From the NCBI GenBank assembly GCA_021498095.1, contig JAIZWK010000001.1, positions 540,001 to 572,000 of the forward strand: a stretch of DNA of 32,000 bases, read 5' to 3'. Of the stretch, positions 26,256-32,000 are shown in pieces (the first letter of the stretch is position 1; each line of letters opens with the position of its first letter). The notes below the pieces were generated by a model. It was not told the origin of the DNA. It saw only the letters and a program-made list of their open reading frames with translations, and made no database searches. This DNA comes from Candidatus Harpocratesius repetitus. Its GTDB lineage: Archaea; Asgardarchaeota; Lokiarchaeia; Sigyniarchaeales; Promethearchaeaceae. Both the position numbers and the translations under genes were made by a program.

Positions 26256-29000
26256 TTAGATAAATTTATTTAACCGTTCCAATATTTGGCTATAGAGTTC
26301 AACAGTTTTTTCGATGTCTCCTTGATCCAAGGTATTCTGAGCTTCTCTTGAGAGATTATCTACAAGAATCTTCAAATTTTCGAATTGAGTCATTTCAATC
26401 ATTTGATATTCATGTAATATTTCATTTTCTTGCGGGATTTCTTTAAACGCCCATTTAATCAATGCACCAACTTGTTGTTCATTTTGAGCTTCAGGAAGAA
26501 TGTTTTTTGGTAATTTTATTTGATAATGATAAAAAGTAGGGATAATATCTTCAATTATTACACCTAAAATTGCTTGTGGAAATTTATTTTTGAAATACAT
26601 TGTTGCTTTGAACAACCCCTCATGGGAATAGGTTTTAATTCTTGTATGGGTTTTAATAACCTTTAGTTGATTCTTTAATGGAACTAAAACAGTTCGCGAT
26701 ACACGTTGCCGTAATTCATAATTTATTGTAATTGATTTTTTTACAGGGATATCATTTAATTTCCAATGAAGAACCAATCCTTCTTTCTGTAATTCTTCAC
26801 TTGGTTGAATTTTCTTTTCGATTCCATCTATTGTTATATCTGAAATTTCAAAATTATAAGGAATAATGTCTTCAATAATAGCTTCGGCAATAGCATCGTT
26901 AAATGGATTTTCAAAACCAGAATTCACCCTAAATGGAGAAATTTTTGAAGTTTCTTCAGAATTTTTATTTAAATCTGGAGAATACATAGATATTTGTGAT
27001 TTTGATTTAATTTCCATTGTTTCACCTGATTTACTTGTAAGTAATAAAGAACTTTCCATTTCTTTCTTAACATCTACACGTTGTTCATCTAATAACGCGC
27101 CTATTTGAGCAAAAGCTTCATTTATATCATCTGATAAGTTCGGTAAAATATCTTCTAAAGATAAATCTTCAACTAAAGGAAGGACATTTTTCTCTACCTT
27201 GATTATTTCTTCAACTTCTTTGGCTTTTTCAAGTAATTTTGTCTGTTCTTTGTTATGTTGACTCAAAATCTCCTCTATTTTCGTCAAAGCAAGTTTTTGG
27301 AGATCATTATATTTATATATCTCGCCATCTTTTTCAATTAAAGGAAGAATCTCTATAATACGCTCCGTATTTCGTTTCAATGCCTGCCATTGAAGATTAT
27401 TCTTATTTTCTTTAATTTCACTGCGAAGCCGATTATATAAAGATAAGTTTTCTTCATAAGCTGCCTTTTTTTTCTCTATTGATCTTTTTATTTTCTCTAA
27501 ATGTTCTTTATTTTCAGGAGAATTAGATAGAATTTCGTTAGAAAGAAAAATAGCAAGATCACTAAGAATTTTATTATATTGCTTTTGGTTTTCCAGTTCA
27601 GGAAGGATTTCTTCCCAAGAATTAATCTTTTTAACCAAATCTTCCAAGAGCTTAAGATTAGTTACTCTTTCATTGATTTGATCTCGATAATCCGATACAT
27701 CCTTTTGTAATTCTTCGTCTTTTGTTTGTAGCGCAAATAAATAAAGTTTTTCCACATGGCTAAAAGTTTCTGGAAACTGATGATTACTCAAAAATTGTTC
27801 TATTTCTTCTTTTGCATTTTGTATATATTCTATATTTTTATTTCTTTTTGATTGTGTCTCTTTTTCCTGTTTAGTCCATGCATCTTTTAATTCTTGTAAT
27901 GTCTCTTTTTCCTGTTTCCATCTGATTAATTCAGAAGAATGATTGGATGAATTAAGAAAATCGATTATTTGATTAAGAGTTTGAAATGCATGCTCATATT
28001 CATGCTTATATTTTGCATCTTCATAGCGTTCTTTAAACATTTTTAATTTTTGATTAAATTTCTGCTCCTCTTTTTCCCATAGTTTATAATCATCCTCAAT
28101 TTTATCAATTTTTTCTTTGATTAAAGAATTAATTTCTAATTCAGGAATTTCTTCATGAATTCGTAATATTTTCTGACCAATTCGATGAAGATCCTTTAGA
28201 TTTCTTTCAGGAAAAAGTGCTTCAAACTGTTCTAAGAGTTCTTGAAAATCTTTTTTTTGTCGTAAGTAATTATCATAAAGTATTTTTTCAGAATTTAATG
28301 AACGTTGGAATTTTGAAGGTATTGATTCATTGAAGAGAATGGAATAATATTCGCGAATCACCTCAGAAGTATTATGAGCATCGATAAATTTTTTATCCTT
28401 AATTAGAGAGTCAAGCTTTGCAATCATATGGGGAATTTGGCCCTTAATCTCAGATTTTCTTGATTTCAAATCTTTTACACGAAGAATTTGTTCTTTTAAT
28501 TTAGTGTATTCTTCAATAATATCCCAATCATAAATTTCGCGGGCAGTTTGAATAAGTTGTTCGATGTAATTTAATGCAGTTTCGAAATTACCTACATTTT
28601 TGGCTGATGTAATGTTAATCTTTAAATCACTCAGAAAAGCATATTTCTCAAGACGGAATTCAGCCCACCTTCTTTGTTTTTTTCTAATCAAATCTTGATC
28701 AAGTAGTGTATCTGCCCAAAAATCACTTGATTCATTCCCTTCATCCACTGTAAAATGACGAATTATCGATATGTCTGGGTTCTTTTCCAATATTATTTTT
28801 TCTGCTATCGGAATTGAATTTTTTAATTTTTGTCCTGCATTCTTTCCTATCCAAATATAAAGTCGCCTTTTTTCATTATGGTATAAATAAATTACATTAA
28901 CAGAAATTAGTTTCGATGGGAGATCATCTAAATCCAATTCTTCAATTTGTCCATCAGGTTTGAGAATATACAAAAGAAGATTTTTTGATTTACTATTCAT
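26256..29000 (-). CDS. Gelsolin-like domain, helical-hairpin/coiled-coil repeats, two cytosolic Ig-like domains, terminal helical hairpin
   Basis: N-terminal LISVNVIYLY..RLYIWIGKNA...VDEGNESSDFW matches the gelsolin repeat pattern (L.S.DV...YIW.G....EG.E..eF). Two IEDIIP...W..I....Y units lie 107 aa apart. No signal peptide or TM. Confidence 0.75.
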   Translation of the reverse strand: MNSKSKNLLLYILKPDGQIEELDLDDLPSKLISVNVIYLYHNEKRRLYIWIGKNAGQKLKNSIPIAEKIILEKNPDISIIRHFTVDEGNESSDFWADTLLDQDLIRKKQRRWAEFRLEKYAFLSDLKINITSAKNVGNFETALNYIEQLIQTAREIYDWDIIEEYTKLKEQILRVKDLKSRKSEIKGQIPHMIAKLDSLIKDKKFIDAHNTSEVIREYYSILFNESIPSKFQRSLNSEKILYDNYLRQKKDFQELLEQFEALFPERNLKDLHRIGQKILRIHEEIPELEINSLIKEKIDKIEDDYKLWEKEEQKFNQKLKMFKERYEDAKYKHEYEHAFQTLNQIIDFLNSSNHSSELIRWKQEKETLQELKDAWTKQEKETQSKRNKNIEYIQNAKEEIEQFLSNHQFPETFSHVEKLYLFALQTKDEELQKDVSDYRDQINERVTNLKLLEDLVKKINSWEEILPELENQKQYNKILSDLAIFLSNEILSNSPENKEHLEKIKRSIEKKKAAYEENLSLYNRLRSEIKENKNNLQWQALKRNTERIIEILPLIEKDGEIYKYNDLQKLALTKIEEILSQHNKEQTKLLEKAKEVEEIIKVEKNVLPLVEDLSLEDILPNLSDDINEAFAQIGALLDEQRVDVKKEMESSLLLTSKSGETMEIKSKSQISMYSPDLNKNSEETSKISPFRVNSGFENPFNDAIAEAIIEDIIPYNFEISDITIDGIEKKIQPSEELQKEGLVLHWKLNDIPVKKSITINYELRQRVSRTVLVPLKNQLKVIKTHTRIKTYSHEGLFKATMYFKNKFPQAILGVIIEDIIPTFYHYQIKLPKNILPEAQNEQQVGALIKWAFKEIPQENEILHEYQMIEMTQFENLKILVDNLSREAQNTLDQGDIEKTVELYSQILERLNKFI

Positions 29001-29139: not shown

Positions 29140-32000
29140 ATGACTTATATTAAACGAGTAGTAATGACGGGTTTCAAATCCTTTGGAAACCGAACAGTAT
29201 CAGTTAATCTTGCCAAAGGTTTTACATGTATTGTCGGACCAAATGGAAATGGTAAGTCCAATGTTATAGATGGGCTTTGTTTTGCTTTAGGGCGTCTGGC
29301 AAAATCGACTATGCGGGCAACAAAACTAACAGACTTAATCTTTGCGGGTTCCAAAAAGGTAAAGCCCGCTACTCGAGCAGAAGTTGAAATAGTATTTGAT
29401 AATAAAGATCGAGTCTTTCCTTCAGATTCTGATGAATTTAAGGTCTCTCGATGGATTAAACGGAGTGGAACTAGTGGCTACCGAATTCAAGGGAAAGCTT
29501 CAACCCGAACAGCTATTCTAAATGCTCTGGCTCAAGCTAATATTGATCCAGATGGTTCAAATCAATTTGTTCTCCAAGGAAAAATTGTAGAACTAACCCA
29601 TATGAGCCCAAATGCGCGTAGAGAATTCATAGAAATGTTAATTGGACTAAGTAAATATGATGAAATGAAAGATAAAACATTAAAAGAGTTAGAAAAAGCA
29701 GATAAAGATTTGGGACAATTTGAAGCAATTTTCAAAGAAGTATCAGTTCAATTAAAAAAAGTGGAAAAGGAAAAAAATGATGCTTTACGATGGAAAGAAC
29801 TTGATAATCAGGTAAATCTTTTCAATGCACAACTGATTGCCTTAAAGATCCATAAAATGCGCCAAGAAGAAGACGATATTGCCACAGAAATGGAATCCAC
29901 TCAGTTGGTGATTGAGGATTTAAAAAATCGAATTCAGCGCCAAAAAGATAAAATTGAGGCAGAAGCACTCTACTTAAAAGGTCTTGAAGAGGATATTTCT
30001 GCACAAGAGACAGAAAAATCCAAAATGGATGAAGAAATCACTTCTCAAAAATCAGAACTTTCAGCTAAAGAAGCAACTTTAAAAGCAACTGAAGAAAATT
30101 TAAAACGGCTTCAGCAAAATATCGAGAAATTAGAAGATCTTCAGCAAAAACTGGAAGAAGGTCAAACTTATGATGATTTAATTAACAAAACAAAAGAAGA
30201 AATTGAAAATCTTCAGCAAGCTTTAGATGAAAATTCAGGATTAATTGATGAAAATAAAGCGAAACAGAAAGAAGAAGAACAAATAATTGCACAAATAAAT
30301 AATGAAAAAGCCCAAATTAATAAAGAAATCTCCAAAATCAAACAGGATGGTAAAGCTTTAACTACTGAAATCAAGCTTTTGGAAAAAACTATTAAAAAGA
30401 ATGAGAAAAAGAGAGCTCAACTAGAAAAAGATTTGAAAAAGTTACAGAAAGACGCAGAAAGTGTAACTGAAGCGATGGAACAAGCAAAAAATGAAGCCAA
30501 ATCCATTCAAGAAAAAATTTCAACATTGAAAAAGCAAATTACTGAGCAAAAATCACTACAAAAACAACTTGATGGAGAAATCCAAAAGCTAGAAGTAAAA
30601 CGTGACAAATTTTCGAAATCACAAGCAGAAATTCAAGCTTCCATCTCTTCTGCAGGTGCAGAAATTAACATGCTTGAAACCCGTATACAAGAACTTGAAA
30701 AGAAGAAAAAAGATTATAGAAACGAGTATGAAAAACTAACAAAAGGCCAAGCAGTTGAAGACCAAATCAAAACTTTAAAAGTCGAAGAAAAAGAAATCTC
30801 ACAACAGTTAAAAAAGCTTAAAGAAAAACTTATTTCCGCAAATGATGAGCAAAAACGAAGTCAAAATAAACAAGAAACCTTGGAATTGAAACGACGAGCA
30901 TTAGAAGGAGAATTGACCGACCTTGAAAAACGTCTTTCTGGATTACGTGTTGAACTAAAAACGGCAGAATCAGAACTTCATACTTCACAACGGGAAAAAC
31001 AACATAAAGATATTATCAAAGAAAATTTAATAAAAGAAATTACAATCCAAAAAGAACAAAAAGAGAAATTGCAAAATCAAGTTGAAAATTTTCAAGCTAA
31101 AATAAACCAAATGAAAAAAGAGCGCGCTAAACTTCAAGAAACAATTGATAAAAAGGAAGAAGAATATGGTCAAACTCAACTTGAATTAAACACAGTACTC
31201 GATAATCTAACGAATTTGATTCAAGATATTGATCGCTCTGCAGGTGATATCAAATCTGATATTCAAAATGTTAGTCAAGTTGCAATTGATGAATCAGGAA
31301 AAGTTTTCAAAGAATTTGTGCTCGATGTCACCGATATGTTGCGATCTATAGAAGAAATATCAGAAATGAATCCTGAAGATCCAAAAGAAATCCAGGAACA
31401 ACTGAATTTTGCAGTAAATACTTTAAAATTATTAATTGAAAATGCAGAACAACCACTAATTCAACTTAATGAAGTCGTTCAAGATGCTAGTGATGAAGCA
31501 TTAAAAGAATCTACTGGTAATTTCGATGGATTTATACAAGATTTTACAGATAAATTCGATTCAATTCGTGTTGCTTTACAAGCTGTCGCAGTAGCAGATA
31601 CATCAGAACATTATCGAGCATTAGAGGATCTGAATTCTGCTATTAGTTCCCAATCTGAAGAGCTCTCGAAAATATCAGTTCAGCTAACTCGAATCACAGC
31701 TCAACTGGAACAAAAAGAACGTGAATTATCACAAATCAATTCGGAATTAAAACAGTTACAAACAAAAATTGATGAAGCAGAGAAGAAATCTAAAATAGGT
31801 AAAAAAGAAAATGAAGAAAAAACCAAAAAATCTGAAGAAATAAAAGAAGAAATCGCAAAAATAACCTCCACAATTTTAGATATAAAAAAATCTTCTGAAA
31901 ATTTTTGGAAACATACAAAATCCCTACAAAATGAAATCGATAAAAAAGCAGAAATTCTTTCACAAATTACTGAAGATCTAAATAAATTGAGCAATGTAAA
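29140..32000 (+). CDS. smc: SMC-family chromosome segregation ATPase (3' partial; absent from the ORF track), atypical long arm with no canonical hinge visible
   Basis: Hand translation gives 953 codons without a stop: MTYIKRVVMTGFKSFG...Walker A IVGPNGNGKSNVIDGLCFALG, R-loop MRATKLTDLIFAG, VFDNKDR, Q-loop FVLQGKI, then coiled coil from about aa 170. Confidence 0.93.
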   Translation, partial: MTYIKRVVMTGFKSFGNRTVSVNLAKGFTCIVGPNGNGKSNVIDGLCFALGRLAKSTMRATKLTDLIFAGSKKVKPATRAEVEIVFDNKDRVFPSDSDEFKVSRWIKRSGTSGYRIQGKASTRTAILNALAQANIDPDGSNQFVLQGKIVELTHMSPNARREFIEMLIGLSKYDEMKDKTLKELEKADKDLGQFEAIFKEVSVQLKKVEKEKNDALRWKELDNQVNLFNAQLIALKIHKMRQEEDDIATEMESTQLVIEDLKNRIQRQKDKIEAEALYLKGLEEDISAQETEKSKMDEEITSQKSELSAKEATLKATEENLKRLQQNIEKLEDLQQKLEEGQTYDDLINKTKEEIENLQQALDENSGLIDENKAKQKEEEQIIAQINNEKAQINKEISKIKQDGKALTTEIKLLEKTIKKNEKKRAQLEKDLKKLQKDAESVTEAMEQAKNEAKSIQEKISTLKKQITEQKSLQKQLDGEIQKLEVKRDKFSKSQAEIQASISSAGAEINMLETRIQELEKKKKDYRNEYEKLTKGQAVEDQIKTLKVEEKEISQQLKKLKEKLISANDEQKRSQNKQETLELKRRALEGELTDLEKRLSGLRVELKTAESELHTSQREKQHKDIIKENLIKEITIQKEQKEKLQNQVENFQAKINQMKKERAKLQETIDKKEEEYGQTQLELNTVLDNLTNLIQDIDRSAGDIKSDIQNVSQVAIDESGKVFKEFVLDVTDMLRSIEEISEMNPEDPKEIQEQLNFAVNTLKLLIENAEQPLIQLNEVVQDASDEALKESTGNFDGFIQDFTDKFDSIRVALQAVAVADTSEHYRALEDLNSAISSQSEELSKISVQLTRITAQLEQKERELSQINSELKQLQTKIDEAEKKSKIGKKENEEKTKKSEEIKEEIAKITSTILDIKKSSENFWKHTKSLQNEIDKKAEILSQITEDLNKLSNV

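Follow-up and report, generated by a model that had tools for sequence, protein, structure and literature searches.

Gene and locus

The window analysed here is a stretch of 32,000 nucleotides (G000:C1:540001-572000) from the genome of the Loki-type Asgard archaeon Candidatus Harpocratesius repetitus, which consists of a single contig of 4.36 Mb with approximately 30% G+C. At its right end lies the beginning of a gene for an unusually long protein of the SMC type (structural maintenance of chromosomes), hereafter the long SMC. The features of this gene within the window, and the two genes that follow it outside the window (in coordinates of the extended locus, L004), are listed below; positions in the protein are given in amino acids (aa).

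29140..32000 (open reading frame 29140..31998), forward strand: long smc gene, first 953 codons, open at the window end
29140..29649, forward strand: N-terminal head half, aa 1-170 (Pfam SMC_N, motif scan, match to PDB 5xei)
29236-29259, forward strand: Walker A motif GPNGNGKS, aa 33-40 (motif scan)
29650..31167, forward strand: N-terminal arm strand, aa 171-676 (heptad tracking; helix in the AlphaFold2 (AF2) model with a local confidence score, pLDDT, >90)
30322..30903, forward strand: tandem duplication in the N-terminal strand, aa 395-491 resembling aa 492-588 (z = 6.0, 0/500 shuffles; profile offset 97-98)
31168..31635, forward strand: tip module replacing the hinge, aa 677-832 (alignments, repeat test, composition, AF2, absence of a hinge match)
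31366..31383, forward strand: predicted fold-back loop, aa 743-748, with Pro745 and Pro748 (loop in both AF2 models; paired breaks and indels)
31636..32000, forward strand: start of the C-terminal arm strand, aa 833-953 (heptads), the strand running on past the window to approximately aa 1271
L004:5656-6756, directly after the long smc gene: scpA-like gene P0002, 366 aa (profile match to 6ivh_A)
L004:6783-7778, after the scpA-like gene: scpB-like gene P0003, 331 aa (PF04079, TIGR00281)

The complete long SMC (P0001) comprises 1487 aa and is encoded at L004:1141-5604, corresponding to G000:C1:569140-573603, so that the gene ends 1603 nt past the window. The first-pass annotation, made from the letters of the window alone, had argued from symmetry for a protein of about 1,500 aa ending roughly 1.6 kb downstream, and this forecast proved accurate. 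The closest named relative originates from Candidatus Harpocratesius (96% identity). Orthologues of 1460-1505 aa were found in more than 60 genomes, and the long SMC is thus neither a product of chance nor an assembly artefact; the orthologous loci include those of Promethearchaeum syntrophicum MK-D1 and Ca. Lokiarchaeum ossiferum. One further long SMC (58% identity) is encoded on a 4 kb contig, DAITAL010000089.1 (L017), filed under a metagenome-assembled genome named 'Bacillota bacterium', and this is probably a mis-binned Lokiarchaeia contig.

ATPase heads

Both ends of the long SMC were matched by Pfam SMC_N (PF02463) with 172.7 bits, and the whole protein scored 592 bits against NCBIfam TIGR02168, above the cut-off of 567. 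The heads matched the Smc head of Pyrococcus yayanosii (PDB 5xei) with 419 bits, and the canonical Smc of the same genome (P0058) gave 422. The C-terminal head half occupies approximately aa 1290-1470 and is preceded by a Pro-rich loop after the end of the arm near aa 1271. Besides Walker A, a Q-loop (aa 144-147), the signature SGGE (aa 1377), Walker B (aa 1400-1405) and SHR of the H-loop (aa 1435) were located, with signature and Walker B lying where the symmetry of the chain had led the first-pass annotation to expect them. Judged by these motifs and profile scores, the long SMC is a genuine Smc, its heads canonical with every ATPase motif in place, as had been proposed from the N-terminal half. 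The Walker A sequence GPNGNGKS, singled out earlier as unusual, is indeed present, but the variant GPNG[N/A]GKS is a trait of the whole long-SMC family, and the asparagine is without evident consequence. The NCBIfam Rad50 models, which have cut-offs of 700-1087 bits, matched only in part, with 62-115 bits, and in a PDB search with the heads Rad50 reached about 40 bits and Smc5 about 37-39 bits.

The region at the hinge position

No match to the SMC hinge (PF06470) was obtained with Pfam at E<=10, neither on the whole long SMC nor on aa 620-900, while the same model gave 111-116 bits on the canonical Smc paralogue in the same genome as a positive control. Profile-profile comparison (hhalign) of the tip with a hinge alignment built from 11 archaeal and bacterial Smc proteins returned a probability of 0.2%. 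Glycines in the tip region are limited to G702, G720, G793 and G797, and Gly-rich motifs of the hinge type are absent; nor is there a canonical hinge further downstream in the protein. Cysteines occur in the long SMC only at positions 30 and 47, and CxxC is absent in 11 of the 11 family members inspected. The earlier claims that the protein carries neither hinge nor zinc hook, and no cysteine outside the head, therefore stand after the hinge model search and the structure predictions that had been proposed as checks, both AF2 models being all-helical.

The place of the hinge is taken by a tip module of aa 677-832, which is better conserved than the arms in family alignments and includes conserved polar residues. 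Its core (aa 690-830) carries a net charge of -20 and is rich in Phe, Val and Ala. The module is made of two repeats of approximately 72 aa, with aa 708-737 resembling aa 780-809 (z = 6.0; 0 of 500 shuffles reached the score). In the AF2 model of aa 560-960 (mean pLDDT 83) only helices were predicted, with the flanking coils above 90 and the tip at 52-70; the tip forms an extended hairpin with loops at aa 743-748 and 817-821 and a kink at aa 768-769. The tip modelled alone gave a low-confidence up-down helical bundle (pLDDT 61). Both models are symmetric about Pro745, and neither contains strands.

That the region is a hinge diverged beyond recognition by sequence would agree with its location, exactly at the hinge position, and with its conservation relative to the arms. 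Against this are the missing PF06470 match, the hhalign result, the lack of strands and Gly-rich motifs, and a two-repeat helical architecture which is incompatible with the hinge fold, and we consider a disguised hinge to be extremely improbable.

Equally little speaks for a repair ATPase of the Rad50/SbcC kind. The long SMC does share with Rad50/SbcC a long antiparallel coiled coil, the lack of a globular hinge and an apex made from the coil itself, and the Rad50 models match in part. Yet these scores remain far under the cut-offs, the heads give 419 bits with Smc as compared to about 40 with Rad50, there is no CxxC zinc hook, and the partners encoded next to the gene are a kleisin-like and a kite-like protein rather than Mre11/SbcD. 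In addition, a separate Mre11-Rad50 pair is encoded at 4.09 Mb. A Rad50-type identity is accordingly hardly credible.

Searches for relatives of the tip were extensive. A HMMER search with the tip profile, exhaustive over 1.84 billion representative proteins, recovered only 37 proteins, namely long SMCs (with the module at approximately aa 680-850), their fragments, a 1296-aa Sigynarchaeota SMC, and a second family of proteins of about 1000 aa with the module at aa ~70-236. The profile against PDB gave a best E of only 0.037; for 26 tip sequences the Pfam matches were confined to helical families below threshold, such as DUF948, ApoLp-III and WXG100, and an Atlas feature search with the tip gave no named family. 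PF24161, listed for homologues, is the CCDC39 coiled-coil family and was dismissed as a match of composition. With Foldseek the long AF2 model retrieved nothing more specific than coiled-coil hairpins (from a chemoreceptor, the MukB elbow, the dynein stalk and Rad50; TM 0.2-0.5), and the isolated tip model had no match at E<=0.001. VIA aligned the isolated tip with talin rod domains and with Rop-like and sensor four-helix bundles at Z = 11-13, a resemblance to generic four- and five-helix bundles; since such values are usual for any helical bundle, no fold family is claimed for the tip.

Arm geometry and growth

Heptad register was tracked as an average over an alignment of 14 sequences. In the N-terminal strand the heptads are continuous over aa 238-335, 346-539 and 540-680 and become fragmented over aa 681-832; in the C-terminal strand they are continuous over aa 833-947, 958-1037, 1048-1126 and 1137-1231. 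Hence the first-pass annotation was right that coiled coil resumes after aa 820, and nearly right in describing aa 170-690 as uninterrupted heptads, apart from two register shifts, at aa 336-345 (conserved EEGQT[YF]DDL) and near aa 540 (conserved LTKG). The register breaks pair across the molecule, 340 with 1131 and 539 with 952, which places the centre of the fold-back near aa 740-745. Paired breaks and paired indels taken together give sums of the two positions (i+j) of approximately 1471-1506, that is, a centre at about aa 735-753. The chain thus turns back on itself at about Pro745, where the molecule has its centre of symmetry, to form an antiparallel intramolecular arm.

The average arm strand is 472 aa long without the tip, or 548 aa when counted to the turn, compared with approximately 352 aa in the canonical paralogue within the same bounds. 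The ratio is 1.35-1.6, or roughly 70-80 nm versus 50 nm, and the arms "about 50% longer than normal" of the earlier annotation fall within this range.

The length has an origin which can be read from the arms themselves. In addition to the duplication of aa 395-491 in the N-terminal strand, the C-terminal strand contains a tandem duplication in which aa 918-1007 resemble aa 1008-1097 (z = 5.0). The repeats were tested by local alignment against shuffled sequences, and non-adjacent control segments gave z = 0.7 and 1.6. The 1296-aa Sigynarchaeota orthologue (P0045) aligns to P0001 with exactly two clean gaps, at aa 492-588 (97 aa) and aa 918-1007 (90 aa), which face each other under antiparallel pairing (i+j ~1500), so the two proteins are separated by one whole coiled-coil period per strand. 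The arms grew by tandem duplication of one such period in each strand, 97 aa in the N-terminal and 90 aa in the C-terminal one.

In natural prokaryotic Smc proteins the arm lengths peak at 238, 341 and 515 aa and, less prominently, at 163 and 423 aa; engineering of B. subtilis Smc revealed a functional arm-length period of 91-99 aa (Burmann et al. 2017; PMC5344682). Given the 515-aa natural mode, long Smc arms alone were already known. The arms described here lie near that mode and those of the Sigynarchaeota orthologue near the 423-aa mode, and the step of approximately 90-97 aa between the orthologues equals the published period. The long-armed Smc proteins of that study differ in having hinges, while in the present family the period is visible as tandem duplications in both strands. 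The paired one-period duplications and the orthologue shorter by one period are an independent natural confirmation of the rule of steps of about 90-100 aa.

ScpA-like and ScpB-like partners

Six loci, among them those of MK-D1 and L. ossiferum, share the order smc-scpA-scpB, and of three genomes from the sister family (f2) two have the partner gene pair within 1.6-2.7 kb of the long smc gene. The ScpB-like protein P0003 reached 116 bits with PF04079 and, at 100.6 bits, passed the TIGR00281 cut-off of 89.2, and it is the top ScpB match in the genome. The ScpA-like protein P0002 is a candidate kleisin, suggested by a profile match to the structure of the ScpA N-domain (6ivh_A, E = 1.8e-5) and by Atlas language-model features, with similarities of up to 0.94 to ScpA-bearing clusters. 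Both proteins carry N-terminal tails, of approximately 95 aa rich in Lys, Ser and Thr in P0002, and of approximately 160 aa in P0003, where the tail is acidic and composed of tandem repeats of about 11 aa of the EKIGEEIDTEE type. The two tails, which would belong to one complex, are oppositely charged.

On the other side of the long smc gene, 139 bp upstream and divergently oriented, a 914-aa protein is encoded on the reverse strand (window positions 26256-29000). Its N-terminus looks gelsolin-like, without any significant Pfam match. This neighbour could hint at a structural or cytoskeletal role outside chromosome biology, the more so as the close relative L016 has it in the same position (57% identity). 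It is absent from the other five loci, the conserved partner genes are those for the kleisin-like and kite proteins, and the long SMC appears to be the only Smc-type protein in several genera; a cytoskeletal function is for these reasons very unlikely.

Other SMC proteins, distribution and phylogeny

A count of SMC paralogues, suggested by the first-pass annotation, revealed four other proteins in the genome: a canonical Smc of 1206 aa with a hinge, a weak-hinge SMC of 1188 aa, an SMC-like protein of 1057 aa and one Rad50. The canonical Smc has its own adjacent ScpB gene, and the weak-hinge SMC has a kite. Published reports mention two or three SMC complexes in Asgard archaea, with which the genome agrees, and make no mention of hinge loss or arm length. 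The 1057-aa SMC-like ATPase (L029; G000:C1:1137389-1140562, reverse strand) is flanked by genes for an AAA+ ATPase of 327 aa and for proteins of 322, 313 and 176 aa, the 313-aa one having a sub-threshold match to Nse4_C, and the locus may represent a further kleisin-containing system.

The tip profile was found in 67 of the 75 genomes sampled from the order, and in 3 of approximately 225 other genomes of the phylum. The open reading frames of the long SMC are nearly constant in length across the sampled genomes, ~1480-1500 aa. A strong hinge match (E ~1e-30) was obtained in the family to which the window belongs and, within the sister family, in three genera; none was found among the genomes sampled from genera g5, g6, g8 and g9. 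When canonical Smc was compared with five sister-family genomes of these genera which are 98-100% complete (G207, G113, G204, G030 and G135, of g5, g8, g6 and g9), its best match was in each case the long SMC (31-37% identity). No canonical Smc with a hinge turned up in the five, which yielded just the hinge-less protein and a weak-hinge paralogue of approximately 1150-1170 aa. To judge from these gene inventories, the long SMC appears to be the only condensin-type SMC in several genera. In the cultured MK-D1 and L. ossiferum the canonical SMC is present as well as the hinge-less one.

In the tree of head domains the long family is monophyletic (95/100) and falls outside the clade of canonical Loki/Hod Smc (96/99). 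The tree, its backbone unresolved, gave no placement of the family relative to other archaeal Smc lineages. The long family is not nested inside the canonical Loki Smc clade; it lies among canonical Smc sequences, far from the weak-hinge paralogue of the genome. An assignment to the archaeal SMC related to SMC5/6 was tried and rejected, as the long SMC stands apart in the head tree, matches Smc5 weakly and has the most ScpB-like kite of the three in the genome.

This genome and those of MK-D1 and L. ossiferum have both genes, which raises the thought that the long SMC could pair with the canonical 1206-aa Smc as a heterodimer. The arm strands of the two differ by approximately 120-200 aa, the long SMC lacks a hinge with which that of the canonical Smc could pair, each of the two has its own adjacent ScpB gene, and many genomes have the long SMC without a canonical Smc. 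We give such a heterodimer next to no credence.

A second family with the tip module

The tip module has a copy outside the SMC proteins. P0057, a protein of 1041 aa of no known family, is encoded elsewhere in the genome (G000:C1:3819997-3823122, reverse strand, corresponding to L042:3997-7122), and its aa ~67-219 match the SMC tip at 25% identity (E = 2e-14; E = 2e-22 with the profile). A weaker second copy is possible at aa ~333-447. The part at aa ~520-830 looks beta-rich by eye, and the protein ends in a long Lys/Thr-rich tail which may bind DNA. Approximately ten further clusters are related to P0057, and P0057-like genes were found only in the window's own family (f1), in four genomes. 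The gene neighbours of P0057 gave no functional lead.

Comparison with known systems

The long SMC resembles canonical Smc-ScpAB (B. subtilis, Pyrococcus; TIGR02168/TIGR02169; PDB 5xei, 5xns, 3zgx) in its ABC-type heads with all motifs, in the antiparallel arm with paired discontinuities, and in the adjacent ScpA-like and ScpB genes. There are three differences. Firstly, the PF06470 hinge is missing and an all-helical two-repeat module is found there instead; secondly, the arm strands measure ~470-550 aa and not ~340-350; and thirdly, the tails of the partners are Lys-rich in the ScpA-like and acidic in the ScpB-like protein.

Distal dimerisation without a canonical hinge has precedents, as RecN joins via the ends of its coiled coils and MukB via a small hinge. 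The arms of RecN are much shorter, and MukB, MksB and JetC belong to other head families with partners of the MukE/F type. The tip showed no sequence relation to RecN or to MukB/MksB/JetC in the profile searches of the 1.84 billion proteins and PDB. A cluster of 'hinge-less' SMC proteins of marine Actinobacteria, known only from environmental open reading frames, was described from predicted structures by Sussfeld et al. 2025 (PMC12153180). These likewise combine SMC heads and coiled coil with neither hinge nor CxxC, but they are bacterial, and their description mentions neither a conserved tip module nor long arms or an operon. Because the tip profile does not find the actinobacterial proteins, the two losses of the hinge look independent. 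In the literature searched there was no paper describing a hinge-less, long-armed SMC of Lokiarchaeia.

Proposed function

The long SMC is probably an ATPase of the Smc-ScpAB type from Lokiarchaeales, in which an all-helical tip of about 155 aa has taken the place of the alpha/beta hinge on arms of approximately 70-80 nm, as compared to about 50 nm in canonical Smc. We conclude that it probably forms a functional Smc-ScpAB-type complex, apparently the principal one in several genera, with the mechanics of heads and kleisin transferred by homology. Two copies would engage at their heads upon ATP binding, and the ScpA-like kleisin would bridge the two heads with dimers of the ScpB-like protein attached, as in Smc-ScpAB. 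The complex may then entrap chromosomal DNA or extrude loops of it, possibly with a larger lumen or step. At the far ends of the arms the two helical tips would associate as a bundle and so assume the dimerisation role of the hinge.

Several observations weigh against this interpretation. The two AF2 models of the tip disagree, one being an extended hairpin and the other an up-down bundle, and the pLDDT of the tip is low in both constructs. With its strongly acidic character the tip cannot assume the DNA-binding role ascribed to basic hinge surfaces. P0002 fails Pfam ScpA (PF02616), and as a kleisin it is a candidate, put forward on one profile match together with language-model features. The claim of a sole Smc is based on metagenome-assembled genomes, although these are 98-100% complete. 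Finally, a search for sequencing runs turned up none from RNA.

Whether the tips dimerise in place of the hinge is, in our estimation, an evenly balanced question. Complex prediction with two copies of aa 640-880 gave scores of 0.17 and 0.01 against a mark of 0.42 and weighs neither way. The tip could instead be non-dimerising, with the arms as free rods held together at heads and kleisin and the tip docking another factor, such as a member of the P0057 family or a chromatin or membrane partner. The occurrence of the same module in P0057 and some ten further clusters indicates that it is portable and not bound to the SMC apex, and the conserved polar residues of the tip suggest a specific interface. 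P0057 cannot be the universal partner, since P0057-like genes were found only in four genomes of one family and the long SMC is order-wide. As is well established, moreover, the distal ends self-associate in every characterised long-armed protein of the SMC superfamily (Smc, MukB, Rad50, RecN). We therefore regard a purely docking tip as unlikely.

Returning to an Smc-ScpAB-type complex closed at its tips, a more far-reaching version can be imagined, in which the main condensin-type SMC motor of Lokiarchaeales, an order that includes the cultured relatives of eukaryotes, is hinge-free, a portable tip closes or docks the 70-80-nm arms, P0057-like proteins with their Lys-rich tails plug into the apex by means of the same module, and the arms record growth by whole superhelical periods. 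As a complete picture this is tentative and on the doubtful side, but if true, the plugging in of P0057-like proteins at the apex would link an SMC ring with chromatin in a new manner.

Implications

The hinge is taken to define SMC proteins and to be indispensable to them; it is their constitutive site of dimerisation, a surface for DNA binding and, as proposed, a gate for DNA. New in the present work are the paired tandem duplications, the orthologue shorter by one period, the apparent loss of canonical Smc at the level of genera, and the second family bearing the tip. Here is an archaeal order with a bona fide Smc and its probable kleisin and kite, a system in which the hinge has been swapped for an unrelated helical module, and several of its genera appear to rely on this system alone. 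The order thereby offers a natural test of which SMC functions require a hinge, and as MK-D1 and L. ossiferum are in culture and carry both complexes, the question is open to experiment.

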